Under the pieces are notes generated by a model. That model searched no databases and was not told where the DNA came from. It saw nothing but the letters and a program-made list of their open reading frames with translations. Positions 12,658 through 57,765 of a stretch of DNA of 64,000 bases are shown piece by piece; the first letter of the stretch is position 1; every line of letters starts with the position of its first letter. Origin of the DNA: Minisyncoccota bacterium (GTDB taxonomy: Bacteria > Patescibacteriota > Minisyncoccia > Phycocordibacterales > UBA9973). The position numbers and the translations under genes were made by a program. The stretch covers positions 21,595 through 85,594 of the forward strand of contig DAONFW010000001.1 of assembly GCA_035403785.1 (NCBI GenBank), given 5' to 3'.

Positions 12658-12679
12658 AAATTATTTTGTTAAATTAATC

Positions 12680-12719: not shown

Positions 12720-12850
12720 TAATAAACTCTATATATTATATCATCCCGTACGAAAATTACTATCAAGTATGCGGTAATAAAATTAATATAATTAACTGAG
12801 ACAAAAATACCAACTATAACCAAAATATATTTTTGTTCGGGATCACATAA

Positions 12851-12890
12851 GCCCAAAACAAAAACCACCCAATTTGATTGGATGGTTTTT
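12851..12890 (-). terminator. Rho-independent terminator downstream of pilA
   Basis: Hairpin ccacccaat-ttgat-tggatgg (one G-U pair). An A-run on the plus strand gives a T-run on the minus strand. It lies 20 bp past the pilA stop. Confidence 0.6.
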
Positions 12891-12910
12891 GAATAAGTTT
12901 TTTAATACAA

Positions 12911-13309
12911 TTAACAACTTTCACCAGTTTGAGACGTGAACTCTGCTCCACTAGGGGTAATAGTAACTGTACCACATTTTTCAGCAACCCCTGCATTAGC
13001 TGGTGAAGCCGTAAATGCCCAATCTCCACTTCCCGTAGCACCACAAATTTCAGGTTGACTTCCATCATGATTTGCTACCCAAGCTGCACCGGTCAAATTA
13101 TTTGTGTTTGCTGGCAATGTCAAAGCTCCATCATCACATTGAGAAATGAAACCTGGGGCAACTCCTGAAGCTTCTGCTTTAAATGCAGCAACTTGTGCCT
13201 TTCCTCTTGCACTATTAAGTGATGCCAAAACAACTGATGACAAAATTCCGATGATTGCGATAACAACCAACAATTCAATTAATGTAAAACCTTTTTTTGA
13301 ATTTTTCAT
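12911..13309 (-). CDS. pilA: Type IV major pilin PilA
   Basis: KKGFTLIELLVVIAIIGILSSVVLASL prepilin signature. Length 132 aa. C-terminal Cys pair. Confidence 0.9.
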   Translation of the reverse strand: MKNSKKGFTLIELLVVIAIIGILSSVVLASLNSARGKAQVAAFKAEASGVAPGFISQCDDGALTLPANTNNLTGAAWVANHDGSQPEICGATGSGDWAFTASPANAGVAEKCGTVTITPSGAEFTSQTGESC

Positions 13310-13445
13310 TTATTTTTTTCTCGTTAAACGAGATTTTTATTATTAATAATTTATAATTTTTATCTGCATATTTCTCGGCAGATATCGACTTATTTTTACT
13401 GTTTCTATTATATCATAGCTACAAATATAAACTGTGGAAATCTTT

Positions 13446-14651: not shown

Positions 14652-14657
14652 ATTTTT

Positions 14658-15716: not shown

Positions 15717-15795
15717 CCCGTTAGAAATTTATATTAATTAATAATTACTAAACTAGTATACCCCCGTTTTCAATCTTTTTGTTATTTCTAACGGG
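15717..15795 (-). promoter_or_regulatory. 12-bp long-range inverted repeat in the pilT leader (cccgttagaaat ... atttctaacggg) that includes the bases immediately 5' of the start codon
   Basis: Seen in sequence. The arm at 15717..15728 directly abuts the pilT ATG (minus strand). The arm at 15784..15795 lies 57 nt upstream. Confidence 0.4.
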
Positions 15796-15805
15796 ATACA
15801 TTTTT

Positions 15806-16198
15806 TTATTTGTGTTTTTCTTCAAAAATTTTAATAACTTGAGCAATAACTTCAACTGGTGTTGAATTTGCCTTCACTATATAACCAGAAGCCCCTAACT
15901 TTATTCCCTCTTCTATATCAGAATGCTGACCTTTATTTGAAAGAATTACCCTAACAGAATTTACTGCTAAATTTCCTTCATTTATTTTCTTTAACATTTC
16001 AAAACCATCCATTCCCGGCATGATAATGTCTGTCAAAAGGATATCTGGCGAAAGGCCACCTTTTAACCTTTCCAAGGCTTGTTCCGCGCCTGAAGCAGTA
16101 TGAACTTCAAATCCGTTCTGGCTGAACTTCAACGCATACATATCTAAAAGAAAAGTATCATCATCAACTATTAAAATTTTTCTTTTTTCTCCTTCCAT
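15806..16198 (-). CDS. Single-domain response regulator (CheY-like receiver), PilH-like
   Basis: ILIVDDD...DIIMPGMDGFEMLKKI. A conserved Lys is present. There is no output domain. Confidence 0.8.
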   Translation of the reverse strand: MEGEKRKILIVDDDTFLLDMYALKFSQNGFEVHTASGAEQALERLKGGLSPDILLTDIIMPGMDGFEMLKKINEGNLAVNSVRVILSNKGQHSDIEEGIKLGASGYIVKANSTPVEVIAQVIKIFEEKHK

Positions 16199-16245
16199 AT
16201 TTTTATTATACTACTTAAAAAAACCTTTGTTAATTAGTAAAAATA

Positions 16246-18000
16246 TTATTCATTTTCATTGGTAAAATTGTATACTTCTCTAGTTGGAATTATTCCGTTA
16301 ACTGCTTTCAGTATTGCATCTTCACGCATCGTGAGCATTCCTTTCTTTCTTGCAACTTTGTAAATTTCAGAATCAGTTGGATTCTTCAAAATTGTATCTT
16401 GCATCTCTTTATCTATCTTAAACATTTCAAAAACAGCAATACGGCCACTGGTACCACTTGGATATCCAGCCGAAGGAACTGTTTCGTACATTTCATTTTT
16501 AATTTCAATAGTTTTTCTGTATTCTTCTGGAAGATCTTTGATTTGCTCTTCTATTTGCGCTTTGATACTTGGATCTATCGGAACAAGTTTTCTAGATTCC
16601 GGCACAGTCATTTGTGCCAACCTTTGTGCTACAGACAAAATCAAAGTAGGCGCTATCAAATATGGATCAACACCCATATCTACAAGTCTCGGCACAGCAC
16701 CAATTGCATTGTTAGTATGCAAAGTTGAAAGCACTAAATGTCCAGTCAAAGCGGCTTGAATAGCAAGTTGCGCGGTTTCTTTATCGCGGATTTCTCCTAC
16801 CATGATCACATCTGGATCTTGTCTCAAAATAGAACGCAAACCAGAAGCAAAAGTATAACCAATTTCTGGCATCATCTGTGATTGGTTTATATCCGGCATG
16901 TGATATTCGACAGGATCTTCCAAAGAAACTATGTTCAATTTATCTTTATCCAATTCATTCATCATTGAATAAAGTGTTGTAGATTTTCCGGAACCAGTCG
17001 GACCAGTAATAAGAATTAAACCATATGGTTTCTTTATTGCTTCACGTACCATTTCTAAATTTTTTCCCGAAAGTCCAAGCTGATCGAGTGGCTTAACTCC
17101 TTTTTCTGAATCAAGAATACGCAAAACAACTTTTTCACCATAATAAGCCGGCATCGTAGAAACACGGAAATCTATTTTTCTTCCTTCTACAATATTCGCG
17201 CTAAAAGATCCGTCTTGTGGTTTTCTTTTTTCGTCAAGACGTAACTTTGCAAGAATTTTTATTCTGGCAACTATTCCACTGTGTATGGCTGGCGGCAAAA
17301 CAATAGTAGTATGCAAAATTCCATCAACACGATAACGAACTTTTACATTTTCTCCAGTGTGCTCAATATGAATATCAGAAGCATTTCCTTCAATAGCATT
17401 TCGTAAAATAACAGCAACGATTTTTATAACCGGTGCATCTTCTACAATTTTTTGAGCACCTTCAGCACCAGCTTCTTTGATGTCTTTACTTAAAGCGGAA
17501 GCTTCACTCATGGCTTTTATATCTTCTTCCTCTGCTTTAGCAAATTCGTCTACTGCTTCCCCTACTTCTGTAGACATTCCCTTATAATTTTCTAGTATCT
17601 CATTGTAATTACTTTTAGTAATCAAAAATAATTTAAAAGGCAAACCGGATTTTGCAGAAATAAACTGCAAAGCATCTGTCGCTTGAATATTTTCTGGATT
17701 TAATATACCAACTTCCAAAACACCTTCAGTGTAACCAATCGGTACAAAACCATAATGTTTCGCAGAATCTTCAGGAATATATTTAAAAATATCAAAAGGC
17801 AATCTTTTCGTACTTACTTTCTTAATAGGCATAGAAAAATATTCTCCTTTGATTTCTAGCAGTTTATCTTCTGGCAAACCCAAATCAATTAGAGCTTTGT
17901 CTAAATCTCCTTTGTATTTTTCATTGACGCGATTTTTTATCTCACCAAGCTGGCTTTCGTCAATTAAACCTTTTTGTACTAAATATTCTAAAAAACTCAT
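16246..18000 (-). CDS. pilB: Type IV pilus assembly ATPase PilB (GspE family)
   Basis: N-terminal GspII-like domain, Walker A GPTGSGKSTT, tetracysteine-free C-terminus. Length 584 aa. Confidence 0.85.
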   Translation of the reverse strand: MSFLEYLVQKGLIDESQLGEIKNRVNEKYKGDLDKALIDLGLPEDKLLEIKGEYFSMPIKKVSTKRLPFDIFKYIPEDSAKHYGFVPIGYTEGVLEVGILNPENIQATDALQFISAKSGLPFKLFLITKSNYNEILENYKGMSTEVGEAVDEFAKAEEEDIKAMSEASALSKDIKEAGAEGAQKIVEDAPVIKIVAVILRNAIEGNASDIHIEHTGENVKVRYRVDGILHTTIVLPPAIHSGIVARIKILAKLRLDEKRKPQDGSFSANIVEGRKIDFRVSTMPAYYGEKVVLRILDSEKGVKPLDQLGLSGKNLEMVREAIKKPYGLILITGPTGSGKSTTLYSMMNELDKDKLNIVSLEDPVEYHMPDINQSQMMPEIGYTFASGLRSILRQDPDVIMVGEIRDKETAQLAIQAALTGHLVLSTLHTNNAIGAVPRLVDMGVDPYLIAPTLILSVAQRLAQMTVPESRKLVPIDPSIKAQIEEQIKDLPEEYRKTIEIKNEMYETVPSAGYPSGTSGRIAVFEMFKIDKEMQDTILKNPTDSEIYKVARKKGMLTMREDAILKAVNGIIPTREVYNFTNENE

Positions 18001-18002
18001 AA

Positions 18003-18530
18003 TTAATTATTCGCAGGTGTTGTCGGGGTTGTTGTATTTGTTTGAGTAGTTGAAGTTGGCGCAGTAGAAGCAGAAGAAGTATTGCCGGAATTTTCTACAG
18101 TTGGCATGGTTGGTGTTGCGCTTGGTGTTGTATTCAAATTTGTTTCTGTAGTAGTAGTTGGAACTAAATTATTAGGAGAACTTACTGGTGTAATATCAGT
18201 TCCAAGAGGAGCAAAAGGATTCGGTCTTCCTTCTGTACCATCAGAAACTAATTCTATAGTTGAGTCACGAAGAGATAAGAAAGCTGGATCAGAAAAAATA
18301 GAATCATCAATTTTTATATTTCTGACATTTAGCAAAACAGACAAAAAGTTTTTACTGACATCTTCGTTTTCACTTTGAGTTGTATTTATAGTAGCAGTAG
18401 TTGCAACTGTGCCACCAGTCGTTGAAACCAAAGAAGCTTCTTCTGGGCTCTTTTTGAAAACAAAGAAATATACCAAAACTAGTACCACTAGAATTCCTAC
18501 GAATATTAAAATGTTTTTTATCTTTGCCAT
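18003..18530 (-). CDS. Membrane-anchored Thr/Pro-rich protein (possible PilP-like component)
   Basis: N-terminal TM followed by a low-complexity T/S/P/N-rich tail. It sits between pilO and pilB. Confidence 0.3.
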   Translation of the reverse strand: MAKIKNILIFVGILVVLVLVYFFVFKKSPEEASLVSTTGGTVATTATINTTQSENEDVSKNFLSVLLNVRNIKIDDSIFSDPAFLSLRDSTIELVSDGTEGRPNPFAPLGTDITPVSSPNNLVPTTTTETNLNTTPSATPTMPTVENSGNTSSASTAPTSTTQTNTTTPTTPANN

Positions 18531-18531
18531 A

Positions 18532-19131
18532 TTAATTCTTCAGCCAATAAGTTTTAATTTTAAATGTATATTTGTAATTATTAGATGGTTGTGTTGCTGC
18601 TAATCCTGTTCCTGTTTTAGAAGAAAATTCTACAGAAGAAATATCAACAATTCTTAAATTCTTTTCCAAATCTTTTACAAAGTTTAAGAAATCAAAGTAA
18701 CTTCCCTGTGTAGAAAATTCCAATTCCCAAGTGCCGTATTCTTTATTATTTTCTTCTGCTGTAGCTGTCTTTGCATTTTTCAAAGCTAAAGTAGTATCTT
18801 CTTCTTGGGTTTTTGTGTCATATTTAACATCTTTTAAGACCATACCATATGGGATTGCAAGCTTTTCTATTTCAAGAATCAAACGAATATTATCCACACT
18901 ATCAGGTAACATTCTTTCTAATTTAACTAAATTATTTCTATCAATAGAATTGTACTGCTGAGTTAATTTATCTCTTTCAGCTTCGAGCGATTTGGAATTA
19001 TTAAGAGCTTCGTTATATGAATCTACTTGGTCTTTCAATGCAACGACTTCTTTGTAATATGGATTAGTAAAAAAGAAAAAACCAGCTACTGAGATTCCTA
19101 CTAAAATGATTGGTGATAAAAATCTAAACAT
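18532..19131 (-). CDS. pilO: PilO-like pilus assembly protein
   Basis: N-terminal TM followed by a coiled coil. Its position after pilN is typical. Confidence 0.55.
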   Translation of the reverse strand: MFRFLSPIILVGISVAGFFFFTNPYYKEVVALKDQVDSYNEALNNSKSLEAERDKLTQQYNSIDRNNLVKLERMLPDSVDNIRLILEIEKLAIPYGMVLKDVKYDTKTQEEDTTLALKNAKTATAEENNKEYGTWELEFSTQGSYFDFLNFVKDLEKNLRIVDISSVEFSSKTGTGLAATQPSNNYKYTFKIKTYWLKN

Positions 19132-19145
19132 AAAATTTAAATTAA

Positions 19146-19817
19146 TTAACTTTGCACAGGCATAGTCTGATTGCCTGTATTCTCTTGAGTAGTTCCAGAA
19201 GTTACTTCAGTTTCGCTCAAAAGCATTTGTTTATAATCCACAAAATTTGGGTCGACCGAAAATTCCAAATCGAAAAGCACATTTCCTTTGTCGTCTAATT
19301 TAAGGTTTGAGAAAGTAGGATCAATTATATTTTTATTTTCTGCCAACAAATCAGCCTGGAGCGCAATTGATCTATACCCTATTGCCTGTCCACTCATGAT
19401 AACGTTTATCAATTTAGAATTTTTTTCTGTACCAAATGAGTAATTAAAATCTGTGTAACGAATCGTCTTCATCGTGCTTTCTTGCAAAGTTTCAAAAATT
19501 GGAGAAATCGCGATGTGTTTAGTTAAAATCTGATCAGAAGCTGAAAGTCTTTTTCCTAATACTTGCAATTGATTTATTTTAGCTGGTTCAAAACGTTCTT
19601 GTGCCAAAGCTAAATTGGCAGACATTTCTGTAATATTTTTTTGCAACATGCTTTTGTACAAATACAAACCGCCCGTTGCTAGAACAACTGCTAAAAATAT
19701 AAAAATAGAAATCAAAGTTAAAATACTAACCGGTCTTCTTGGGCGCGCAGTTTCTGTCCGCTCTTCTGTTACGATCGGTTTTTTAGGTATGAATGATGTT
19801 TGAAAATTTTGTTCCAT
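19146..19817 (-). CDS. pilN: PilN-like pilus assembly protein
   Basis: Short cytoplasmic N-terminus, single TM, then coiled coil. It immediately follows pilM. Confidence 0.55.
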   Translation of the reverse strand: MEQNFQTSFIPKKPIVTEERTETARPRRPVSILTLISIFIFLAVVLATGGLYLYKSMLQKNITEMSANLALAQERFEPAKINQLQVLGKRLSASDQILTKHIAISPIFETLQESTMKTIRYTDFNYSFGTEKNSKLINVIMSGQAIGYRSIALQADLLAENKNIIDPTFSNLKLDDKGNVLFDLEFSVDPNFVDYKQMLLSETEVTSGTTQENTGNQTMPVQS

Positions 19818-19839
19818 ACTTCTACTTCTATTATCTCAT

Positions 19840-20967
19840 TTATTGTAATTTTCGTAAAGCCAAACCTATGGCAACTGCGAATTCTGGGCCAGTTGCCTCA
19901 AGAACTTTGTCCAAAAATGCTGGGGCGCCAACTTTTGAAAACGGTTTCCCCACTACTACTTCTGCTTTAAAACTATTTGTAGCTATTTCTTTCAACCCTT
20001 TCATCAAAGCCCCACCGCCAGTCAAAATAACTTTACTAATAGTCCTTCCGTATTTTTTTTCATAGCCAAGCAAGACATCATTCGTTTCAGCAATAATATA
20101 ATCTGTATGCAATTTTATTATTTCCGGCAAAGTTTTTTCTATTGGATTATCGTAAAGGCCATATTCTTTTTTTAATTCTTCTGCTTTCGCAAACGGAATG
20201 CTCAAAGATTTTGAAATCGAATCTGTTATATCAGAGCCTCCCCTATTCACAGTATGAAAACTTTTTATTGTGCCAAATTCAACAATTGAAAGTTTGGTAC
20301 GCGATGCGCCAAAGTCCATTAGCAATACTGGTGAAAGTTCGTGTTCAAAATTTGATCGAATAGAAGAAAAAACTTCTACCTCAAAAAAATCTGTCTCTAA
20401 TTCTGCGCCTGAAACAATCGAGCGATATTTTGAGACTGCATCGTTCTGAATAGCTACAACTAGAACTTCTATTTTTTCAGCCACAACGATTGCGTCTGGA
20501 TTGTGTGATTCTGCAAATGATGGCTCTTTTTTTGGTAAGACAAAATAATCCAAAGAAACTTCGGTAATCGGCACTGGAATATACTTTCTTGCTTCTGTTT
20601 TTACAATCGCATCTATCTCGCTTTCTTTTATCTGAGCTGGGAGTTCGATAGTAAAAATCAAACTTGAAACAACCGGAATGGCTAATGCTGAATTTTTAGT
20701 AGTAACATTTGAATCTTTTAGAACTTCTTTCAGAGCTTCAATTATTTTTTCCGGCTGAAGACTTGTAACTCTTCCCATTTCTAATTCTGCGTACGGGCCT
20801 AAAGAGATCGCACCATAAGTTTCAAGCACAGCGCGCCCTTCTTTTTTCTTAATCTGCACAATTTTAATCATTGAAGAACCGATGTCGATTCCGACAGCGC
20901 TTTCACTAGAACCTCCTTTGAATATACCAGAAGCTGTATCTAAAATTTTCTTGAACGGATTATCCAT
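19840..20967 (-). CDS. pilM: PilM (actin-like ATPase fold)
   Basis: GIDIGSSMIKIV phosphate-1-like motif. Length 375 aa. First gene of the pilMNO set. Confidence 0.75.
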   Translation of the reverse strand: MDNPFKKILDTASGIFKGGSSESAVGIDIGSSMIKIVQIKKKEGRAVLETYGAISLGPYAELEMGRVTSLQPEKIIEALKEVLKDSNVTTKNSALAIPVVSSLIFTIELPAQIKESEIDAIVKTEARKYIPVPITEVSLDYFVLPKKEPSFAESHNPDAIVVAEKIEVLVVAIQNDAVSKYRSIVSGAELETDFFEVEVFSSIRSNFEHELSPVLLMDFGASRTKLSIVEFGTIKSFHTVNRGGSDITDSISKSLSIPFAKAEELKKEYGLYDNPIEKTLPEIIKLHTDYIIAETNDVLLGYEKKYGRTISKVILTGGGALMKGLKEIATNSFKAEVVVGKPFSKVGAPAFLDKVLEATGPEFAVAIGLALRKLQ

Positions 20968-21047
20968 CTTTAAATTAATTTAAAACTTTATTTATCTGTG
21001 TTAAAATACATCAGCATCCTTAATAGATTACTGTAATTATAACATAT

Positions 21048-21698
21048 ATGAGCTTTATAAACACCATATTAGACGTTATTTTTCCTGTGAATTGCGTTTC
21101 CTGCGGAAAACCAAGCGAAGAACTTTGCGCAATTTGTTTGAGAAAATTTCCTGAAAACAAAAACAATAATTCAGATTGGATATTTTCCCTTTTTGAATAT
21201 CAATATCCTTCTGTAAAAAAATCTATTTGGTTTTTAAAATATAAAAATAAAAAAAGACTTGCAAAAACCTTTGCAGAACTTTTGTATACTAAAATAGTAA
21301 GAGAATTGTCGAGTTTGCCAGAGCAAGAAAAATTTTCTAATCCCCTTCTAATGCCTATTCCGATTTCTGCAAAACGCAGACGCGAGCGCGGTTACAACCA
21401 AACAGAACTTTTGTGCCAAGAATTATTAAAATTAGATAGAGAGCGAATTTTAAGTTTAGAAAAAACTGTTTTGATCAAACCGAAAGAAACAGAACATCAA
21501 GCACAAATAAAAAACAAACAAGAAAGACTACAAAATATCGTCGGCACTTATTCGTTGAAAAACAGAGAAAAAATAAAAGACAGAAATATTATTCTAATAG
21601 ACGACGTCACTACAACCGGCGCAACACTAGAAGAAGCAAAAAAATTGTTAAAAAAATTTGAAGCAAAAAAAATTATTGCTTTTACAATTGCGCATTAA
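21048..21698 (+). CDS. comFC: ComF-family competence protein (zinc finger plus phosphoribosyltransferase domain)
   Basis: CVSCGK...CAICL zinc finger. PRTase motif IILIDDVTTTGATL. Confidence 0.75.
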   Translation: MSFINTILDVIFPVNCVSCGKPSEELCAICLRKFPENKNNNSDWIFSLFEYQYPSVKKSIWFLKYKNKKRLAKTFAELLYTKIVRELSSLPEQEKFSNPLLMPIPISAKRRRERGYNQTELLCQELLKLDRERILSLEKTVLIKPKETEHQAQIKNKQERLQNIVGTYSLKNREKIKDRNIILIDDVTTTGATLEEAKKLLKKFEAKKIIAFTIAH

Positions 21699-34493: not shown

Positions 34494-35477
34494 TTAACTA
34501 TTTTTTAAATCACTCATTATTTTTTTTGCCAAGTGATGAGCAAAATTTACTGCAACAGCATTTCCAATCATTTTATAACCGTCAGCAATATCACGATATT
34601 TGAAAATAAAATCATCGGGAAATGTTTGTATTCTTGCACACTCACGAACAGACAAACGGCGGTATAATTGTTCTTTTCCGGGAACAAAAATTCTTTTATT
34701 TTGTTCAATAAATTTCATTTTTGGTGCTTGTGGGTGAATTGGTGCGTGGCGACCACCAGCTTGAATTGTGAAAGAAGGCTCGTCCCAAGAACGGACACGA
34801 TTTCGCGACATATAAATCGTTGAGAAACCGCCATTCATATATTCATGGTTTGGAATTTTCAACTCGTCGCCGTTTGTCTTGTTTTTATCTTTAGCTGGTT
34901 TTGCTAAACGCAAATCAAAAATAGCGTCTTTCAAAACAGGTTTATATTTTTGTGGTTCTGGAAATTCAAATTTCTTTTTTAATTTTTTATGATAACCAAC
35001 AATAATAACGCGAAGCCTATCCTCTGGAACATCATAATCATTTGCGTTTAGAAGTTTGCAAGAAATTACATATCCGGCATTTTCAAATTCCTTGATTATA
35101 TTTGAAAATGCCTCTTTGTGTTTTGGGTGTAAAATCCCCGATACATTTTCTGCAAGAAAAAATTTTGGCTGTTTTTCTTTCAATAAACGAATGTAGTCAT
35201 AAAATAATTGACCTCGCTTGTCGTTTATTCCACGCCCAGCACCAGCCTCACTCCAACTTTGGCAAGGAGGTCCGCCAATAATTCCGTCAACATCGGGGAT
35301 TTCAGACGCTGGAACATCAACAATACTTCTCTTGTCTAATTTTGTTTTTGGAAAATTATACTCAAATGTTTCCCAAATTGTCGGGTCGTATTCATTCGCC
35401 CAAACGACATGAAAACCAGCTCTTTCAAAGCCTAAATCTAACCCACCCGCACCTGTAAATAAAGAAGCTAATTTCAT
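34494..35477 (-). CDS. dcm: DNA (cytosine-5)-methyltransferase
   Basis: Motif I LFTGAGGLDLGF. Motif IV GGPPCQSWS. Motif VI ENV. Motif X GNAVAVN. Confidence 0.9.
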   Translation of the reverse strand: MKLASLFTGAGGLDLGFERAGFHVVWANEYDPTIWETFEYNFPKTKLDKRSIVDVPASEIPDVDGIIGGPPCQSWSEAGAGRGINDKRGQLFYDYIRLLKEKQPKFFLAENVSGILHPKHKEAFSNIIKEFENAGYVISCKLLNANDYDVPEDRLRVIIVGYHKKLKKKFEFPEPQKYKPVLKDAIFDLRLAKPAKDKNKTNGDELKIPNHEYMNGGFSTIYMSRNRVRSWDEPSFTIQAGGRHAPIHPQAPKMKFIEQNKRIFVPGKEQLYRRLSVRECARIQTFPDDFIFKYRDIADGYKMIGNAVAVNFAHHLAKKIMSDLKNS

Positions 35478-35478
35478 A

Positions 35479-36327
35479 TTATTTTCTAAAACTCAATAAT
35501 TTCGCCTCAAGCAATTTTGCTGGATTATTTGGCGATTTTATTTTTATATCTTTAATTAAAAAGTTATCACTAACTAAACTTTCAAGATGTTTTCTGTCTT
35601 TTTCTGGAAAAGACAAATATTTTTCTTTCAGCAAAATTGCATTAACAAAAAATTCAGAATTTTGCTCTGCCGGAACAACATAATCAAAAACTTTTATAGG
35701 ATTTTCAATTCCCCACATTCCACGAATACGCAAATATGTTATTCCAAGAGGATCAACGCGATTTACTCTGCCGAGTTCGTTTGTTTCCGAAAATTCAACA
35801 TCTTGTAATTCATTAACACCTTTTGAAATTTTATCTCTTATTCTTTCGTAAACTTCTTTATTTGCGGAATAACAATTACCATAAACAAGCCACAAGGCTT
35901 TTAGCTTGTCATCTTTTGAAACTCCAACAACATAAACTAAATCTTTTTCCCGCCAATCCTCACAATTTTTGCAAGCAGTGGTTATCATCGGACTATCAGA
36001 AAATAGTTTGTCTTTAGGATACGAACTATTAAGTGCAATTCCCGAACGCAAACTTTCAATTTTCTTAACTTCTATCGCATCACCTTGCTTGATAATAATG
36101 TCTGGCGGATTATTTTGATTTCCAATATAAGAAAAATATTTGCTGTAAATTTCATTTTTCTTTTCAAGATTATTTTCATTTAGGGAATTGCAAAATAAGT
36201 CTTTGATATAAAATTCTAAAGCGTCGCCCATACTGTTTGCTCGGTTGGCAGCACGATAATGAGAAACCAAATTTGTAATTGGATTTTTGACTAAATTTGA
36301 TATTGCGATAAGTAAATTTGTTTCCAT
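35479..36327 (-). CDS. Type II restriction endonuclease (PD-(D/E)xK fold), cognate of the m5C MTase
   Basis: PPDIIIKQGDAIEVKK fits PD-x10-ExK. It is 1 bp upstream of dcm on the same strand. Confidence 0.55.
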   Translation of the reverse strand: METNLLIAISNLVKNPITNLVSHYRAANRANSMGDALEFYIKDLFCNSLNENNLEKKNEIYSKYFSYIGNQNNPPDIIIKQGDAIEVKKIESLRSGIALNSSYPKDKLFSDSPMITTACKNCEDWREKDLVYVVGVSKDDKLKALWLVYGNCYSANKEVYERIRDKISKGVNELQDVEFSETNELGRVNRVDPLGITYLRIRGMWGIENPIKVFDYVVPAEQNSEFFVNAILLKEKYLSFPEKDRKHLESLVSDNFLIKDIKIKSPNNPAKLLEAKLLSFRK

Positions 36328-36331
36328 AGTT

Positions 36332-36526
36332 TTATTTTATTAAATCCTCAATCGGCACATTAAGTGCCTTCGCGATTTTTTTAATTGTATCAATAGTTGG
36401 ATTTTGTTGTTTGCCTGCCTCGATATTGATTATCGTATTATTGGAAACATCAGCAAGACGGGCTAGTTTTTCTTGCGACAAACCCATTTTTTCTCTTATT
36501 CGTTTGATTTTGCTTGACTCTACCAT
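36332..36526 (-). CDS. Controller (C) protein, XRE-family HTH
   Basis: 64-aa HTH (LSQEKLARLADVSNNTIINIEAGK). It lies immediately upstream of the REase gene. Confidence 0.7.
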   Translation of the reverse strand: MVESSKIKRIREKMGLSQEKLARLADVSNNTIINIEAGKQQNPTIDTIKKIAKALNVPIEDLIK

Positions 36527-36556
36527 ATTAAAATAGTAATATTAAATTGTGGTATA

Positions 36557-36600
36557 ATAATTATATGCTTCAACAAAATAACCACAATATAATATTACCA
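36557..36600 (-). promoter_or_regulatory. Candidate C-box operator palindrome (TTGTGGT ... ACCACAA) upstream of the C-protein gene
   Basis: Seen in sequence: attgtggtataataattatatgcttcaacaaaataaccacaat. Confidence 0.4.
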
Positions 36601-36711
36601 AAATATTTCGACTTCGTAAAGAAAAAAGGGAGTTCCTTAGCGTTGCCCGCGAATGGGTTGGGTGGGTCAAGGGCAACATCTCTTTTGGTGGCGCATTTTG
36701 CTTTGCAAAAT

Positions 36712-36906
36712 ACGAAATTCGGAAGCGAAAAAGGAAAGGTTCAAAAACCCGCCCGCATTCCTCCCCAGACCCCTCCTGCGGGCGGGAAGAAAGCCGAGGC
36801 GGGGCAATTCCATTCCCCCAGAAAAATAGTTTGCCCCGCCGAGTCCAAATTAGTTTTCAGGATTTTCGTCAAAAAACGTTCGAACTTCGTCCAAAAAACA
36901 CCGCCA
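36712..36906. repeat. Inverted repeat X2, right copy, ending in the CCGCCA core (36901..36906)
   Basis: Reverse complement of 34268..34462. Confidence 0.85.
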
Positions 36907-37034
36907 AGTTTTACATTCAGCGAAATTGAAAGATGTTGCCTCGGCGCAAAGCGCCTCGGCATGGTATTTTTCCGCAATTTTGAAGGCATTTTTGAAATCC
37001 AAAACCAAAGTGCGGTCGGCAATGCGGAAGTTCG
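36901..37034. repeat. Inverted repeat Y2, copy A (about 133 bp)
   Basis: Perfect reverse complement of 38518..38650 read by eye. It contains the ggcgc-aaa-gcgcc hairpin. Confidence 0.85.
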
Positions 37035-37148
37035 CCGTGCAAAGCACGGGCAAAATGAAATTTTGCAAACCAATCTTTTTTCTTTCGCTTTCGGCGAAAG
37101 GTTGAGCGTATTTTTCTTTGATTGCCCAAAAACTAATTTCAAAACAAT

Positions 37149-38702
37149 ATGGACAACATAAATTTACAAACCAAAAAGATTTTTCTCTATGCCCGTAAAT
37201 CCACGGACGAACCCGAAAGGCAGGTTTTGAGTATTGAGGCGCAAATGTTTGAATTGCGGGAATTTGCGAAAAAAGAAGGACTAAATATCGTCCGTGAATT
37301 TGTGGAAAGCAAAACCGCCAAAGAGCCGGGGCGTGAGATTTTTAACGAAATGATCACAAGCATAGAGAAAAATGAAGCAGAGGGAATTTTAGCGTGGCAC
37401 CCCGACCGCCTCGCTCGAAATAGCATAGACGGCGGACGAATAATCTATTTCGTAGATACTGGCAAAATTACCACGCTAAAATTTCCAACTTTTTGGTTTG
37501 ATCCGACACCGCAGGGAAAATTTATGTTGAGTATCGCTTTTGGGCAATCAAAATATTATGTGGATAATCTTTCGGAAAATATAAAGAGGGGTATTCGCCA
37601 GAAATTGCGAAATGGAATATGGCCCGCTTGGGCGCCACTTGGGTATGTGAACGACAAGAACGCCCGCTGTATTGCCGTGGACAAGGAAAAGGCAAAGTAT
37701 ATCAAGCGGGCTTTTGAAATGTACGCGACTGGCGAATACCCCCTCGCTCAAATCCGAAAGATTATCAATTCCTTGGGCTTGGTTGGCAAGAAAGGCAAAA
37801 TGCTTTCCGTCTCAAATTATCAGTATATGCTGAAAAATAAAATCTATTACGGAATGATTGAATATAACGGCGAATTGTATGACGGAAAGCACGAACCGAT
37901 TATCACAAAGAGACTTTTTGATTTATGCCAAGAAGTGATGATGAATAAGTCAAAACCGAAAACACCAAAACTCAAGCCATACATTTTTAGAGGATTTTTC
38001 CGTTGTGGGGAGTGCGGTTGTTTCATTACCACCGAAACGCAAAAAGGTCATAACTATTTGCGATGTACGAAACGGAAAAATCCTTGTTCGCAAAGGTATG
38101 TAAGAGAGGACGCCATCACTTCTCAAATTAAAGAGGAAATCAAAAAAGTTTCTTTGTCTTCCGCTTGGGCAAACGCTTCAATCAATTATTTTGAAAATGA
38201 AAAAATGAAACTTGCCCAAGCGGAAAGCTCTTTCGCCCAAGAAGCGAGAAATGAGCTTGTAGAGATAGAAACAAAACTTGATCGTTTGCTTGATTTACAA
38301 CTGGACGGCAGTTTGTCGCAAGCAGAATATACCGCTAAAAAGCACAAGCTCATTCTCGCCAAAAAGGATTTGGAAGAAAAAATCACTGCTTTTGGGCGAA
38401 AGAGCAATAATCGGTTCGAACTTACCATTGCCTTTCTAAAAGACGCCAACCAAGCCGAAAAATACGCTCAACAAGAAAATCCCGAAAGGATTCGGGATTT
38501 TCTCAAAAAGATTGGTTCGAACTTCCGCATTGCCGACCGCACTTTGGTTTTGGATTTCAAAAATGCCTTCAAAATTGCGGAAAAATACCATGCCGAGGCG
38601 CTTTGCGCCGAGGCAACATCTTTCAATTTCGCTGAATGTAAAACTTGGCGGAGACGGCGGGATTCGAACCCGCGATGGGTTTTGAAGCCCATGCCTCTTT
38701 AG
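37149..38702 (+). CDS. Large serine recombinase (paralog of 5132..6730)
   Basis: YARKSTDEPERQ catalytic motif. Zinc ribbon FRCGECGCFITT...LRCTKRKNPCSQ. The C-terminal tail is encoded by repeat Y2 copy B and then antisense tRNA-Ser, giving WRRRRDSNPR as in the paralog. Confidence 0.85.
   Translation: MDNINLQTKKIFLYARKSTDEPERQVLSIEAQMFELREFAKKEGLNIVREFVESKTAKEPGREIFNEMITSIEKNEAEGILAWHPDRLARNSIDGGRIIYFVDTGKITTLKFPTFWFDPTPQGKFMLSIAFGQSKYYVDNLSENIKRGIRQKLRNGIWPAWAPLGYVNDKNARCIAVDKEKAKYIKRAFEMYATGEYPLAQIRKIINSLGLVGKKGKMLSVSNYQYMLKNKIYYGMIEYNGELYDGKHEPIITKRLFDLCQEVMMNKSKPKTPKLKPYIFRGFFRCGECGCFITTETQKGHNYLRCTKRKNPCSQRYVREDAITSQIKEEIKKVSLSSAWANASINYFENEKMKLAQAESSFAQEARNELVEIETKLDRLLDLQLDGSLSQAEYTAKKHKLILAKKDLEEKITAFGRKSNNRFELTIAFLKDANQAEKYAQQENPERIRDFLKKIGSNFRIADRTLVLDFKNAFKIAEKYHAEALCAEATSFNFAECKTWRRRRDSNPRWVLKPMPL
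38518..38650. repeat. Inverted repeat Y2, copy B, abutting the tRNA-Ser 3' end
   Basis: Reverse complement of 36901..37034. Confidence 0.85.
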
Positions 38703-52230: not shown

Positions 52231-52632
52231 TTATAACTTATTTTCTTCTTTTATAAAAATTCTTTTTACAAAATAAATAGTAGCGAAAGTACCACCAGCC
52301 AAATCACAAAAAATATCAGAAACAGTATCTAAAATATTAAAAGGATTTTGTGCAATTGTTTCGTTAACAAATATTTCAAAAAATTCCCAAAAAATGCCAA
52401 TTGTTAAAACAATAAGCAATATTTGTATTATATATTTATAAGTTATTTTTTGTTCTTTGGTAGGAAATATCCAAAGCGCAGCCAAAGCAACCCAAAAGCC
52501 ACCCAGAGTGTGCATGATTATATCAAAATACCATACAGAATAATACCAATAAAACTTACTTCCAATGAAATTCAAAAAGAAAATAAACAATATAACTGTG
52601 GCTAACCGGATAAAAAGTTTTTTCTTGTCCAT
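52231..52632 (-). CDS. Small polytopic membrane protein
   Basis: Four hydrophobic helices. Length 133 aa. Confidence 0.45.
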   Translation of the reverse strand: MDKKKLFIRLATVILFIFFLNFIGSKFYWYYSVWYFDIIMHTLGGFWVALAALWIFPTKEQKITYKYIIQILLIVLTIGIFWEFFEIFVNETIAQNPFNILDTVSDIFCDLAGGTFATIYFVKRIFIKEENKL

Positions 52633-52904
52633 TTTTTAATTATATCTTAAAAATTCTGTTAGAAAAGAAAAAATCCGTGTAAAAACGGATATCTTCTTAG
52701 GACTATTTTCAATATATTACCCTAGCTTTAAACTAGGTGGATGCTAGACACAAGGGACCAAGGTCGATTGCGATCGAAGCTTCCATATATATAGTGTTCT
52801 AGGTAATAATTGAAAATAACCCTACTTAAATTCTAACCAAAAAATTTTCTTTTGCAATAGAAAAAATCAAAAAACCATAACTTATTTTAAAAAACAAGTT
52901 GCAA

Positions 52905-52934
52905 AAAATAAAAACCCACTTTTGTGGGTTTTTA
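52905..52934 (-). terminator. Terminator downstream of ndk (cccac-tttt-gtggg)
   Basis: Seen in sequence with flanking A- and T-runs. Confidence 0.55.
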
Positions 52935-52945
52935 TTTAAAAAAAT

Positions 52946-53461
52946 TTATTTTTTCTTTGTCTGAGTAAATTTTTCATGAACAACCTCGTAGTCAAAAAGC
53001 TCGTTTTCAGAAAACCAATGACTTATTTCTAGTTTTGCTTCTTCTTCATTTCCAGACGCATGAATTAAATTTGGAATTCCAACTTTGTTAACATCACCAT
53101 GCGTATAACTCATATGAGCATAATCCCCTCGAATCGTACCAGGCTGAGCTGACTTTGGCTCTGTTGAACCAACCATCTTTCTAACTAAAGTTACAGCTTC
53201 AATCCCTTCCAAAACGAAAGCAACTACTGGACCAGCACTCATCATTTCTAAAGTTACATCAAAAACATCTTTTCCTCTTCGGGAAACTAATTTCCCTATT
53301 TTTTCATAATGATGAAAAAAATGATCATAATCTGGCTGAAGCATTTTTGCTCCAACTATTTTTAATCCGACTCTTTCAAACCGAGATAAAATTTCACCCA
53401 TTACTCCACGCTGAACAGCGTCCGGTTTAAAAACTATTAGGGTTCTCTCCAAATGTGCCAT
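52946..53461 (-). CDS. ndk: Nucleoside diphosphate kinase
   Basis: ERTLIVFKPDAV...FERVGLKIVGAKM. His-loop region NLIHASGN. Confidence 0.75.
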   Translation of the reverse strand: MAHLERTLIVFKPDAVQRGVMGEILSRFERVGLKIVGAKMLQPDYDHFFHHYEKIGKLVSRRGKDVFDVTLEMMSAGPVVAFVLEGIEAVTLVRKMVGSTEPKSAQPGTIRGDYAHMSYTHGDVNKVGIPNLIHASGNEEEAKLEISHWFSENELFDYEVVHEKFTQTKKK

Positions 53462-53536
53462 AAATTTAAAAATTTAAATTAATAATAAATATATCTTAGC
53501 AGAAATTGAGCTATTTTTCAAAAATATAATAAATAT

Positions 53537-56305
53537 TTATCTTTCGTATTTTCTCATAATTCCTGCTTCAATATCTTCCCTATCCCGTCCGTACTTCAAA
53601 TAAGAAAGTTCTTTCAATGGTTCTACAATTTCTAAATTTCCCTCCTCCGGAGCTATTGTGTGCATATTAAATGGTTTTGTCGGCTGCCCTTTAACTAACA
53701 TATTTACGTACGCATTATAGTTATCTAATTTCATAATATCAGCAGCTTTGAAAGTCGGTAAAAATCTTTTTTCTAAAAACTGTGCATCTTCAGAACTCAC
53801 ACGAAAAACAGCCATCGAACCAACGTTTCCAAAAACAGCATTTTTTATGCCTTCTTCAAGTTGCGAAATATATTGGTGCGCTATATTCAAAGACAATCTG
53901 TATTTTCTAGCTTCTGAAAGAATAGATGCAATAGAATCTGTAGTTACGTTTTGGAACTCGTCTATATACAAATAAAAATCATTCATCTTTTTTCCAAACA
54001 TATCTACACGAGAAAGCGCCGCCATTTGAATTTTTCCTACCAAAACTAGACCAATCAAGTTTGCATTCATTTCACCTAATCTACCTTTTGAGAGATTAAC
54101 TAGCAAAATTTTCTTGTTGTCCATTATTTCTCTGAAATTGAATACAGATTTTTCTTGAAGCACCACTGGTCGCATAATATCGTTTGAAATAAAGTTATCA
54201 AATTTAGAAGTAATATACGGCACAAAGTTCGCAAGACCTTGATCTCCTGTCGTTTGTTCTGCTGAAGCCCAAAATTGCTTAATAATAGGATTTTTACATT
54301 TTGAGAGTTTCATATCACGAAATGCCTTATCAGAAAGAATTCTAGATATTTCAAGTAAAGTACAACCAGAATCTGGATCTTCCATGGCAAGAAAAGCACT
54401 GTTCTTGAAATACTGTTCGAACATTGGACCTCCAGAGGTTTTCATATCGAAAAGCTTGTTAAAAATTCCCATCAGTTCATTCACTACAAAAGTCTTCTGT
54501 TCAGGATATTTTGGGTCAAATTCAAGCATATTAAGCCCCATTGGTCGTGCTGTATATGCAGGGTCAAAGTATATAACATCATCTATTCTATTTTCTGGAA
54601 TTCTAGAAAGGATAGTCTGAATATCAGTACCGTGTGGATCAATATAACAACAGCCATCACCATTTTTAATATCCTGAGTTATCATGTTTAACATAATATT
54701 AGTCTTACCTGTCCCGGTCTGACCAATTACATACATATGACGGACTCTATCTTCGCGAGCCATACGAATTTCTGTATCTTTGCCACGATAGCTATTTATA
54801 CCCAACACAATCCCCTCTTGCCCCATTTCAAACGGAGCTGGGGCAATTCCTGCTTTTGCTTCCTTAAGTTGTCCTTGACCAGTAATTCCAACAGGAAAAT
54901 GAAATACTGAAGAAAGTTCTTTTAAGTTCATCGGCAAAATTTTATTTGAAGGAAATGTTCGGTAAGAAAAATCATGAAAGAAATTTTTTAAATCTCCACC
55001 AGTCATTTTTTCAAAAACAATAGAATTACTTGCTGATTCAGTAAACTGATTAAAAGAAGATTCTATGTCACCCAAAATAGCGTCCGCCCTTTCTTTTGTT
55101 TCAGCAGAAGTGGCTATTCGAATACTTGCTTTCATAATAGAACTCTTCAATTTTTTATTAATATTTTCAACAGCGTTCTGGTCAACCGCTCGTCTACCTT
55201 TCATATATTTTTCTTTCTTTTCTTCTTCTGTTTTTTTTGTATCAAAAAATAAACCTTTTGCCGCCTGCATAAAAGCTTTATTGAACTTATAAAAATTATC
55301 AGCAGCATATTTGACAGACATACCATCTTTTACATCGTCTAAAATCAGATGAAATTGATCTATAAATTTAGTTCCAGCTGGAGCAACCAATAACTGAATC
55401 GCTGCTCCCTCCCCTTCAGATTTTAATTTTGTGAATACATTCAAAATAGTATTCATTGGGTCATGATCTATTTCTTCATAAGTTTTTATAGGTAAAACTG
55501 GACGCTCTAAAAAGCTTGCATAAGCTCCAGCTGAATATCCTTTTTCTGTAAAAATATTATAGTCATCAGAAACTTCTACAATTTTTGCATCGTGATAAAA
55601 AGCTAAAACTTGTTTTTCAAAAAGAGAAACATACTTATTTGGAACAGCGGCATAAACGACAACAGAGTCTCTGCTGTTTTCGAGAGCCACTTCTAATGTA
55701 AAATAATTTTCTTTCTCATTGTTTTTATCTTCTGCAATAGACTGCATTCCAGCATAGAACTGCTCCATTGCACCAATAAATTCTTTAAAACCTTTTTGTT
55801 TATCAGCCTCATCTTGTGGTGGAGGAAGTGTAATTTCAAAAAGCGTCATGTGCAAAGATTTATGCAACGGCGTTCCTTCTTTCAAACCCAAAATAGGCTG
55901 GCCAGTTTTCAAATACTGAATCAAAAGTCTATGAAAATCATCATCTATGTGAGGATTATTCATCGCTTCAACCACTGATATTGCATTACGAATACCTTTT
56001 GTTAAAACAATTCCCAAAAGTTCTTCCATCACTGAGTCATGCGCTTCCGGTTTCAATTTGAGTACTATTTCTCCAACTTCTTTTTCTTTCATCAACTGCG
56101 ATTTGTGCACAGCTTCTTTTGCTGGAACCTTTTTATATTCTTCTACTATATTAACTGCTGCTTTCTCGCTAGTATTTTCAAAATGTCCTAACTCTTTAAG
56201 CTCTTGCTCTCTCTTTGCCACATGCGCACGCAAATAATCAAGCTCTTCAGTCGGGCTTTTGAATTTTGGCATTTCTTTAAAAAACGAATTGGAAGATCCA
56301 AACAT
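53537..56305 (-). CDS. Large P-loop ATPase of the VirB4/TraC / T4CP / HerA-FtsK superfamily with a ~500-aa uncharacterised N-terminal domain
   Basis: Walker A YVIGQTGTGKTNIMLNM at about aa 525. Walker B YLYIDEFQN at about aa 770. Length 922 aa. No TM helices seen. Confidence 0.6.
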   Translation of the reverse strand: MFGSSNSFFKEMPKFKSPTEELDYLRAHVAKREQELKELGHFENTSEKAAVNIVEEYKKVPAKEAVHKSQLMKEKEVGEIVLKLKPEAHDSVMEELLGIVLTKGIRNAISVVEAMNNPHIDDDFHRLLIQYLKTGQPILGLKEGTPLHKSLHMTLFEITLPPPQDEADKQKGFKEFIGAMEQFYAGMQSIAEDKNNEKENYFTLEVALENSRDSVVVYAAVPNKYVSLFEKQVLAFYHDAKIVEVSDDYNIFTEKGYSAGAYASFLERPVLPIKTYEEIDHDPMNTILNVFTKLKSEGEGAAIQLLVAPAGTKFIDQFHLILDDVKDGMSVKYAADNFYKFNKAFMQAAKGLFFDTKKTEEEKKEKYMKGRRAVDQNAVENINKKLKSSIMKASIRIATSAETKERADAILGDIESSFNQFTESASNSIVFEKMTGGDLKNFFHDFSYRTFPSNKILPMNLKELSSVFHFPVGITGQGQLKEAKAGIAPAPFEMGQEGIVLGINSYRGKDTEIRMAREDRVRHMYVIGQTGTGKTNIMLNMITQDIKNGDGCCYIDPHGTDIQTILSRIPENRIDDVIYFDPAYTARPMGLNMLEFDPKYPEQKTFVVNELMGIFNKLFDMKTSGGPMFEQYFKNSAFLAMEDPDSGCTLLEISRILSDKAFRDMKLSKCKNPIIKQFWASAEQTTGDQGLANFVPYITSKFDNFISNDIMRPVVLQEKSVFNFREIMDNKKILLVNLSKGRLGEMNANLIGLVLVGKIQMAALSRVDMFGKKMNDFYLYIDEFQNVTTDSIASILSEARKYRLSLNIAHQYISQLEEGIKNAVFGNVGSMAVFRVSSEDAQFLEKRFLPTFKAADIMKLDNYNAYVNMLVKGQPTKPFNMHTIAPEEGNLEIVEPLKELSYLKYGRDREDIEAGIMRKYER

Positions 56306-56477
56306 ACTCTATATTATACAGCAAAATCCTTATTTTAATGATATTTTATATACTTGACTTTTTATGTTTATTATGATATACTGTTCTTGTAGTTAATTAA
56401 GAGAAAGTATATAATATAAACAAATAGAAATTAGTATTATTAGTCGATTTTATAAAAAATTAATTAAAAAAATATTT

Positions 56478-56939
56478 ATGAGTAATCAAGAATTTCCACC
56501 AAGATCAAGCGATCAAGCTGATGTATTGGAAAACAAAGTTTCTAATGTAGAAACTCCAAAAGTATTAAGTGAACAAGAAAAATTAGCCGCTGAAGCTATG
56601 CAACAGCAAAAAGGAACAGAGAAAATTACAAAAGAAGAAAAAGAAAAAATTGGCATTTGGACAAAATTAGGAAGAACATTTAATACAGAGAAAGCTTGGA
56701 AAAACGCTCCTATCGCTGCCTTAGAAAAGCATGCGGAACAAGTATTTAAGAATCCTGGTGGCAAAAGAAAAATGATGAGATATCAGGAATTAAAAAATTC
56801 CGGAGATCTTGATAGAGCAAAAGCATTCTTAATAGCTATTAGCGCACAGAATTATGAGCTTCCAGATGAAAAAACATATGATGATGTAAACAAAAGATAC
56901 ACGAAAGACACTGACACAGGAGGAACATTTGGGCAATAA
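56478..56939 (+). CDS. Hypothetical charged protein
   Basis: 153-aa ORF with no motif. Confidence 0.35.
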   Translation: MSNQEFPPRSSDQADVLENKVSNVETPKVLSEQEKLAAEAMQQQKGTEKITKEEKEKIGIWTKLGRTFNTEKAWKNAPIAALEKHAEQVFKNPGGKRKMMRYQELKNSGDLDRAKAFLIAISAQNYELPDEKTYDDVNKRYTKDTDTGGTFGQ

Positions 56940-56961
56940 TATATATTTATCGTTACACAAA

Positions 56962-56990
56962 ACAAAAACCCGCGTTATGTGGGTTTTTGT
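56962..56990. terminator. Terminator hairpin between convergent genes
   Basis: aaaaacccgcgttatgtgggttttt. Confidence 0.45.
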
Positions 56991-56997
56991 TTTGTTT

Positions 56998-57765
56998 TTA
57001 AATTTTAGTTAAAATTTCTGGGTCACCGTCTGTAATCAAAACAGTATGCTCGAAGTGAGCGCTCTTTTTTTTGTCTAATGTTGTAAAAGTCCAATCATCA
57101 TCTTCTACCACAACGTGTTTGGAACCGTTATTTAGCATCGGCTCTATCGCTATCACCATCCCTTTTCGCAACTTCTCACCCTTGCCCGGTTTCCCAAAAT
57201 TTGGAATAAAAGGATCTTCATGAATTTTTTTTCCTACGCCATGGCCAGCCAAAACTTCTACAATTCCGTATTTATGTTTTTTTACAAAATTTTCTATCGC
57301 ATGACCAATGTCTCCAGTGTGGTTCCCTTCTCTCGCAGCTTCAATACCGATTTCTAAAGCTTTCTGGGTTACTTCTATCAACTTTTTAGATGAATTACTT
57401 ATTTCTCCCACACCAACAGTCATCGCCATATCTGAAAAATAACCGTCGTGCTCTAGACCCAAATCAATAGATACGATATCCCCTTCTTTTAAAATTCTAT
57501 TTTTCTTTGGTATTCCGTGCACAACTTCTTCGTTTACTGAAACACACAAAGCTGCGGGAAAAGCGTAACTCGCTCCTTCCGGCTTGTAATTCAAAAAAGC
57601 CGGGCGATCACCCATATCTCTGATTAACTTTTCTGCGTATTTATCAAGATCCCATGTTGAAATACCAGGCTTTATCATGTCTTTAACTTTATTCAAAACA
57701 ACAGCGAGCCTTCTGCTTGCCTCTCGAATTTTCTCTATTTCTTTTTCTGTTTTTATAATTACCAT
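56998..57765 (-). CDS. map: Methionine aminopeptidase, type I
   Basis: Metal ligands in the FSDMAMT...AGHGVG...IEP context. Length 255 aa. Confidence 0.9.
   Translation of the reverse strand: MVIIKTEKEIEKIREASRRLAVVLNKVKDMIKPGISTWDLDKYAEKLIRDMGDRPAFLNYKPEGASYAFPAALCVSVNEEVVHGIPKKNRILKEGDIVSIDLGLEHDGYFSDMAMTVGVGEISNSSKKLIEVTQKALEIGIEAAREGNHTGDIGHAIENFVKKHKYGIVEVLAGHGVGKKIHEDPFIPNFGKPGKGEKLRKGMVIAIEPMLNNGSKHVVVEDDDWTFTTLDKKKSAHFEHTVLITDGDPEILTKI

Follow-up and report, generated by a model that had tools for sequence, protein, structure and literature searches.

The described systems closest to the gene considered here are the VirD4-family type IV coupling proteins (T4CPs), among which TrwB of R388 (PDB 1E9R/1E9S), DotL and Cag-beta, and the VirB4 ATPases, represented by TrwK of R388 (PDB 7O42/8RTD). 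The gene encodes a 922-residue ATPase and was found in a stretch of 64,000 nucleotides of contig DAONFW010000001.1 (assembly GCA_035403785.1), from a Minisyncoccota bacterium. The whole stretch, hereafter the window, was analysed. By analogy with known coupling proteins, the protein has about an even chance of being a domesticated hexameric motor of T4CP type, which would serve a chromosomal, relaxase-less machine resembling type IV secretion systems (T4SSs) and encoded elsewhere in the genome of these Patescibacteria.

A survey of 3,035 Patescibacteria genomes (Quinonero-Coronel et al. 2025, PMC12102498) reports VirB4 in 2,417 of them, and 5,713 VirD4-type T4CP homologues in 2,918, only 148 of these homologues being near virB4. 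VirB4 genes are described there as neighbours of TrsD, VirB3, VirB6 and VirB8. Exaptation of t4cp 'cannot be ruled out' according to the same authors, who note that the t4cp homologue of Southlakia was not essential. The essential T4SS of Southlakia has been described without recognisable coupling and relaxase proteins (Wang et al. 2023, PMC10633639). The window gene is very probably one of the orphan T4CP homologues of this survey. Such orphans are thus already known, since 2025, in the candidate phyla radiation (CPR), and the gene is an ordinary member of a large catalogued family. New here are the VirB4-type fold predicted for the N-terminal domain, the switch between membrane anchor and fused adaptor, the position between map and ndk, and the link to genes filling the T4CP slot on plasmids of monoderms. 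No description of the N-domain fold, of the two architectures or of the map-ndk synteny was found in the literature searched, including the available part of PMC12102498.

Domain structure of the protein

The open reading frame (ORF) is on the minus strand, starts with ATG and is full length (coordinates of all features are in Table 1). The initial annotation had described an orphan VirB4/T4CP-like ATPase surrounded by housekeeping genes, and this description holds. The protein belongs to the VirB4/T4CP branch of the HerA-FtsK superfamily, and its gene stands isolated from T4SS genes in the genome segment of a CPR bacterium of Paceibacteria/Nomurabacteria type. Walker A and Walker B motifs are both in the C-terminal half, and 245 residues separate the end of the former from the start of the latter, as had been noted. 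The lack of transmembrane (TM) segments was also correctly reported, the best 19-residue Kyte-Doolittle window scoring 1.40. The same is true for the lack of neighbouring VirB6, VirB8 and relaxase genes, none of which was found in a Pfam survey of the window combining scans of about 50 ORFs with precomputed Pfam assignments from 43.8 kb to the right end. Profile comparisons gave TrwB and DotL as best solved matches, Foldseek aligned the model to TrwB, and the protein was not placed in any unrelated ATPase family.

The C-terminal 425 residues resemble VirD4-family T4CPs in the RecA-like nucleotide-binding domain and in the Walker A, IDPHG, Walker B and RK..HQ motifs, and a helical insert is predicted between Walker A and Walker B. 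The Pfam models TrwB_AAD_bind (25.4 bits, cut-off 20.5) and TraG-D_C (24.4 bits, cut-off 22) are both matched above cut-off, T4CP model matches being placed at residues 515-560 and 777-837, and partial matches to TraD-type T4CP models were found in NCBIfam. When a profile of 47 diverse relatives was compared to PDB, the best solved proteins were TrwB (1e-6) and DotL (2e-5), with alignments spanning the Walker A, IDPHG, Walker B and RK..HQ regions. The AlphaFold model of the full-length protein (pLDDT 84.2), aligned to TrwB by Foldseek, gave TM-scores of 0.62-0.67, normalised to TrwB, over 404-458 columns overall; helices predicted at residues 603-706 are located where the all-alpha domain of T4CPs sits. 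TrwB_AAD_bind is matched by all of the 47 relatives, TraG-D_C by 46 and T4SS-DNA_transf by 22. In contrast, the VirB4 model AAA_10 is matched by one relative (E 2e-3) and CagE_TrbE_VirB by none, whereas the true VirB4s adjoining the plasmid homologues described below reach 7.7e-116 on AAA_10. HerA and FtsK/SpoIIIE are members of the same ATPase superfamily, but scores are below or near cut-offs. DUF87/HerA reaches 20.8 bits, under the cut-off of 23.2, HerA 4d2i is matched at E 0.003 in the P-loop region only, and the FtsK_SpoIIIE model is touched weakly by 14 of the 47 relatives. The HAS-barrel and the alpha and gamma domains of FtsK are absent. Walker A, Walker B, IDPHG and RK...HQ motifs are invariant in the 47 relatives, and the tract EARKYRLSLNIAHQ, which includes the last of these, would have an Arg-finger/sensor role. 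Sequence thus identifies the motor as a coupling-protein ATPase of VirD4/TrwB type, whose catalytic motifs are intact. It is about 17% identical to TrwB, and differs from TrwB-type T4CPs because the N-terminal TM domain is replaced by 500 residues, comprising a helical extension and a module similar to the VirB4 N-domain. The gene also differs from that of TrwB, as it is a vertically inherited core gene with no adjacent relaxase or T4SS genes.

The N-terminal 500 residues had been called unrecognisable. This is correct for sequence searches of local libraries, which gave no match, the Pfam copy used included. The statement does not hold for the newer Pfam, as PF26449/DUF8128 is listed for the N-terminal half in the precomputed annotation of an identical database protein and of all the listed relatives, nor for the structure, since a VirB4 N-domain fold is predicted. 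Fold comparisons covered PDB and viral proteins. DUF8128 is accordingly presented here as a module that is predicted, on structural models, to be similar to the N-terminal domain of VirB4. Residues E205, F252, G300, Q304, K385, R449 and E463 are invariant in its core. No papers were found under the name 'DUF8128'. The predicted fold is what the protein has in common with VirB4; it differs from VirB4 because N-domains have no sequence-level similarity, the ATPase fits T4CP and not VirB4 models, and the gene has no VirB3, VirB6 or VirB8 neighbours.

Relatives in Patescibacteria, plasmids and phages

A first homology search with the window protein gave 2016 matches. The top 120 are full length, 77-100% identical to the query, and derive from Paceibacteria/Nomurabacteria metagenome-assembled genomes (MAGs); identity to many species is 78-88%. 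Top relatives are named at NCBI either 'TraM recognition domain-containing' or 'type IV secretion system DNA-binding domain-containing' protein. The N-terminal 494 residues alone matched 1013 clusters at 50% identity (595 at E<=1e-10), and in full-length matches the matching domain is always at the N-terminus. The wider diversity of relatives was reached by a profile of the short forms described below. Taking one genome per GTDB species, at least 596 loci encode a relative. Nearly all are in MAGs labelled as Patescibacteria-type, two are otherwise labelled.

The gene order secY-adk-(amino-acid kinase)-map-X-ndk-DUF2238-RNase J-LOG, in which X denotes the ATPase gene and all genes are on one strand, was found in 22-29 of 80 related loci, down to about 45-50% identity. 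In the loci with conserved order, the median identity to the query is about 55% for the ATPase protein, to be compared with 57% for Map, 60% for RNase J, 59% for L20, 37% for Adk and 38% for Ndk. Because gene order is conserved, and identity is similar to that of Map, RNase J and L20, the gene behaves, on these comparisons, as a vertically inherited core gene, and not as a decaying mobile-element gene. In Paceibacteria its fixed place is between map and ndk, where the ribosomal spc-secY-adk-map cluster ends.

Two architectures are found in the family. The window protein is a long form, in which an all-helical extension precedes the DUF8128 core. Short forms, of about 820-840 residues, are found in Moranbacteria, Portnoybacteria, Sungbacteria and others; they lack residues 1-140, and a TM helix directly precedes the DUF8128 core. 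A strong N-terminal TM helix was detected in 112 of 123 short forms, a TM-like window in none of 120 long forms. In the ATPase domain, long forms are 83% identical to one another and 55% identical to short forms. Immediately upstream of short forms there is a small gene (about 125-157 codons), found at position -1 in 7/7 loci where it clustered; genes of like size are at position -1 in three further short-form loci. The encoded protein is acidic and disordered at the N-terminus, and bears a conserved helical motif at the other end; its C-terminal helices match residues 90-140 of the window protein (hhalign probability 95.9%, E 6e-9). The small protein looks like an uncharacterised partner or adaptor family. 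The long form carries the conserved motif of the partner in its own extension, and its membrane anchor has been lost. Such a fusion or fission argues that the two parts work together.

Large (700-1200 residues), highly charged proteins with no Pfam match recur in several lineages just upstream of the pair formed by small partner and short form. These are soluble, save for one weak TM-like window in one of them, and are too divergent to cluster together. A VirB6-like polytopic topology was sought in the large proteins adjoining short forms, and none was found. These proteins might belong to the same system as the short forms.

In one Moranbacteria locus (L084) the short form is followed, 20 bp on, by a gene (10510-10893) for a 127-residue VirB2-like T4SS pilin (PF18895), featuring a signal peptide plus two hydrophobic helices. 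A 325-residue protein weakly matching PF18895 is encoded about 6 kb upstream of the ATPase at another locus (L087). Other short-form loci are housekeeping, with genes for GroEL, UvrB, Tgt, GT39 glycosyltransferases, GtrA and ClpB. Neither the window nor any related locus examined has VirB3, VirB6, VirB8 or TrsD neighbours.

Homologues covering both domains were identified by tblastn in 312 plasmid records, from Streptomyces (91), Bacillus (54), Clostridium (17), Sulfolobus (11), haloarchaea and others. The homologue of the Embleya plasmid NZ_CP108778 (WP_331738717.1; BLASTP 1e-55, 24% identity, residues 148-883) has an N-terminal TM helix, and shares with short forms the presence of a single such helix. 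Genes are there in the order PrgI-family (VirB3-like) gene, VirB4 (AAA_10/TraC), homologue, Replic_Relax, NlpC/P60 hydrolase. In the 27.5-kb B. subtilis plasmid NZ_CP154917 the homologue WP_345805471.1 is followed by Replic_Relax, by 'conjugal transfer' genes and by an 847-residue AAA_10 VirB4. That Replic_Relax proteins are MOB_L relaxases is not stated in PMC5313138, and the neighbour is called here a 'replication-relaxation family' gene only. On monoderm plasmids the family fills the T4CP slot, and a true VirB4 is also encoded there, by another gene. Because full-length homologues on plasmids of actinomycetes and Bacillus adjoin both VirB4 and a replication-relaxation gene, sequence comparison traces the family to T4CPs of monoderm conjugative elements. 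The plasmid genes differ from the window gene in being plasmid-borne and flanked by VirB4, PrgI/VirB3-like, hydrolase and Replic_Relax genes, none of which flanks the window gene.

Phage proteins of similar architecture were also found. The phrog_5156 family is matched at E 3e-78 over residues 153-918, and homologues 20-23% identical to the window protein are present in 43 phage records, including gp156 of Bacillus phage G, the 'VirD4 component-like' proteins of SPO1-like phages, and Geobacillus phage TP-84. They have in common with the window protein DUF8128-like and ATPase domains (tblastn, residues 180-887), and differ for the low identity and the phage context. BFVD fold matches to the N-domain reach 7e-19. 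In Bacillus phage G the adjacent genes gp155 and gp156 encode products which both match the N-domain fold.

Surroundings of the gene in the window

The ndk gene (52946-53461) is on the same strand, 76 bp downstream of the ATPase gene. It is followed by DUF2238, a beta-CASP RNase J-like gene, a LOG/SLOG gene, L20/L35/IF3, PGM, SmpB and FtsH. On the other side are map (56998-57765), also on the same strand, then adk, secY and the spc ribosomal operon. The sole non-housekeeping neighbour is orf153, located between map and the ATPase gene. No homologue of orf153 was found in the 80 related loci, nor any Pfam or PADLOC match. It was rejected as partner of the ATPase, and must be a small gene peculiar to this lineage or else a spurious ORF. 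A hairpin 3' of orf153 is likely a bidirectional terminator, by its sequence, and could end both orf153 and the convergent map transcript. As this hairpin is interposed between map and the upstream spacer, the ATPase gene is probably a transcription unit of its own in the present genome. The end of map is no more than about 100 bp from the start of the ATPase gene in several relatives. Promoter-like matches do not exceed, in this region, the frequency seen in shuffled sequences. Terminator-like hairpins at 52600-57100 are 7, versus a shuffle mean of 2.4 (sd 1.7).

The window also hosts a type IV pilus cluster (9.4-21 kb), a ComFC-like gene, LigA, RecG and a MacB/HlyD exporter. The pilus cluster is complete, is on the minus strand and includes four pilin-like genes with N_methyl motifs; together with the ComFC-like gene, it spans 9428-21698 and is about 32 kb from the ATPase gene. 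Two large serine recombinases are encoded at 5024-6730 and 37149-38702, each near a restriction-modification (R-M) system. These regions may be small mobile or defence islands.

Table 1. Coordinates of the ATPase gene, of its predicted domains and motifs, and of other features in the window and in related loci. Positions are those of the window unless a locus (L) is named; residue numbers refer to the 922-residue protein.
Feature	Position	Strand	Remarks
Whole ORF, DUF8128 plus T4CP-type ATPase	53537..56305	-	ORF translation and precomputed Pfam annotation
All-helical N-terminal extension (residues 1-140)	55886..56305	-	Only in the long, TM-less form; alignment; AF2 helices 18-134
Motif GI.NAL...NPH..DDFHR (residues 90-140)	55886..56038	-	Homologous to C-terminus of ~145-residue protein encoded upstream of short forms
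DUF8128 core, alpha/beta domain with predicted VirB4 N-terminal-domain fold (residues 153-470)	54896..55849	-	Motifs DDYNIF (247-252), EGAAIQ (299-304)
T4CP-type nucleotide-binding domain, RecA-like core plus helical insert (residues 497-922)	53540..54817	-	Pfam, profile versus PDB, Foldseek
Walker A GQTGTGKT (residues 528-535)	54701..54724	-	G528, T530, G531, G533, K534 invariant
IDPHG motif (residues 555-559)	54629..54643	-	Aligns with VDPNG of TrwB
All-helical insert between Walker A and Walker B (residues 600-730)	54116..54508	-	Position of T4CP all-alpha domain; AF2 helices 603-706; 83% median identity among long forms
Walker B YIDEFQN (residues 780-786)	53948..53968	-	D782, E783, F784, N786 invariant
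EARKYRLSLNIAHQ (residues 798-811)	53873..53914	-	HMMER-aligned to TrwB TKGRKAGLRVVAGLQ; E798, A799, R800, K801, Y802, H810, Q811 invariant
Promoter-like site upstream of the ORF	56343..56370	-	Weak consensus match only
orf153	56478-56939	+	Between map and ATPase gene
Hairpin, 18-bp stem plus T-runs	56957..56995	.	Between map and upstream spacer, 3' of orf153
PilD	11863-12657		Pilus cluster
PilC	13446-14651		Pilus cluster
PilT	14658-15716		Pilus cluster
Response regulator	15806-16198		Pilus cluster
PilB	16246-18000		Pilus cluster
PilO	18532-19131		Pilus cluster
PilM	19840-20967		Pilus cluster
ComFC-like phosphoribosyltransferase/zinc-ribbon gene	21048-21698	+	After pilus cluster
First R-M set	1798-6730		HinfI-like endonuclease 4013-4795; N6/N4 methylase 2434-4008; adjoining LexA-like gene 1798-2424
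Second R-M set	34494-38702		NgoPII 35479-36327; C5 methylase 34494-35477
Small gene upstream of short forms	L069 7356-7787; L071 7322-7780; L073 7229-7678; L074 7334-7759; L075 7384-7854; L079 2164-2541; L084 7503-7967
Large charged proteins	L084 1262-7084; L086 3875-6280; L069 4449-7016; L078		L078: cluster c81, 892 residues
Phage homologues, DUF8128-like plus ATPase architecture	L088 5227-7491; L089 4200-6920		L088, Geobacillus phage TP-84; L089, Bacillus phage SP8

Possible role of the motor

As are TrwB, VirD4 and VirB4, the protein would be assembled as an ATP-driven hexameric ring. The VirB4-like N-domain and the fused adaptor helices, which would replace the ancestral TM anchor, may dock the ring on the inner-membrane platform of the T4SS-like machine. 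The docked motor would recruit a substrate, either protein or nucleic acid, and feed it into the machine. The Moranbacteria short form found next to the PF18895 pilin is a link to T4SS parts inside CPR, and has been counted in favour of a coupling motor. Several observations weigh against it. VirB3, VirB4, VirB6, VirB8, T4SS pilin and relaxase families are all missing in the Pfam survey of the 64-kb window. The long form has no membrane anchor, and its docking on a membrane machine is proposed because of the fold analogy with the VirB4 N-domain. According to PMC12102498, T4CP homologues are found in more genomes than VirB4 (2,918 versus 2,417), and therefore some act without a T4SS, or assemblies are incomplete; in the same source, the T4CP homologue of Southlakia epibionticum is reported as non-essential, whereas the T4SS genes are essential. 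Lastly, extreme conservation and a ribosomal-operon position suit a general housekeeping translocase equally well.

Such a T4SS-independent translocase, a domesticated hexamer doing a general job without VirB-type partners, is rather unlikely, yet it is the main rival hypothesis. Candidate jobs are the movement of DNA in division or segregation, or the pulling in of DNA taken up by ComEC and type IV pili. The status of core gene conserved like Map, RNase J and L20, the fixed place beside the ribosomal/secY/adk/map cluster in many lineages, the lack of T4SS genes in the window and near most related loci, the excess of genomes with T4CP homologues over those with VirB4, the anchorless long form and the contacts of 14/47 relatives with the FtsK_SpoIIIE model all fit this hypothesis. 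However, no conserved linkage to division, segregation, ComEC or pilus genes was found within 8 kb in the 80 loci, the closest non-CPR homologues sit in conjugation modules, the VirB4-type N-domain serves as docking module of T4SS inner-membrane complexes in the one homologue solved, and one CPR lineage has the gene beside a T4SS pilin. An action together with the pilus/ComF machinery, as suggested in the initial annotation, found no evidence, as these genes are far away in the window and do not recur within 8 kb of the ATPase in the 80 loci. That the protein is the true VirB4 of the genome, merely encoded apart from the rest of the system, is highly improbable. T4CP models match the C-terminal domain in all 47 relatives, AAA_10 in one and CagE_TrbE_VirB in none. 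The plasmid homologues coexist with an AAA_10 VirB4, and take the T4CP slot beside the replication-relaxation gene. The TrsD, VirB3, VirB6 and VirB8 neighbours reported for Patescibacteria VirB4 are absent here.

The isolation from T4SS and relaxase genes, and the presence of two serine recombinases and R-M systems elsewhere in the window, could also be expected from a decaying remnant of an integrated conjugative element, a possibility raised in the initial annotation. This can be practically dismissed. The frame is full length and every catalytic motif is intact, the protein is 78-88% identical to that of many species, and the same chromosomal position recurs down to about 45-50% identity in a family present in at least 596 species genomes and conserved as Map, RNase J and L20. 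Moreover, the GC content of the gene equals that of the window (0.346 versus 0.347), and the recombinases lie over 14 kb from the gene. That the ATPase derives from phages, or acts against them, is very unlikely too. The phrog_5156 match, the 43 phage records and the BFVD fold matches speak for the former, a PADLOC match to mad8 (6e-11), a weak match to a candidate defence protein, for the latter. Yet phage homologues are distant in sequence, no phage or defence genes flank the gene either here or in related loci, the distribution looks vertical and the position is housekeeping. A defence-system reading was rejected, because the PADLOC mad8/HerA match covers the generic P-loop domain only.

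For annotation purposes, 'DUF8128' can be read as a VirB4-N-domain-like module, and genes of this kind are not to be scored as evidence of mobile elements. The predicted VirB4-type N-domain provides a concrete docking hypothesis, and suggests an evolutionary tie between coupling proteins and VirB4. It is conceivable, though doubtful, that DUF8128-T4CP proteins, in which a VirB4-type N-domain is joined to a motor of T4CP type, are a surviving intermediate form linking VirB4 to coupling proteins, and make up a near-universal core motor of Patescibacteria, independent of relaxases and possibly, in some genomes, of a VirB4-type T4SS. If so, the motor might drive the exchange of nucleic acids or proteins with the host during episymbiosis, and, with a fused adaptor in place of the TM helix, Paceibacteria would have changed the way in which the motor is tethered. 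A considerable part of bacterial diversity consists of Patescibacteria, whose cells live attached to those of others. In the only species amenable to genetics the T4SS-like machine is essential, yet it has been described without a recognisable coupling protein. A near-universal, slow-evolving family, located among housekeeping genes for translation and secretion, is the obvious candidate for the missing motor, or else for a second, independent translocase.

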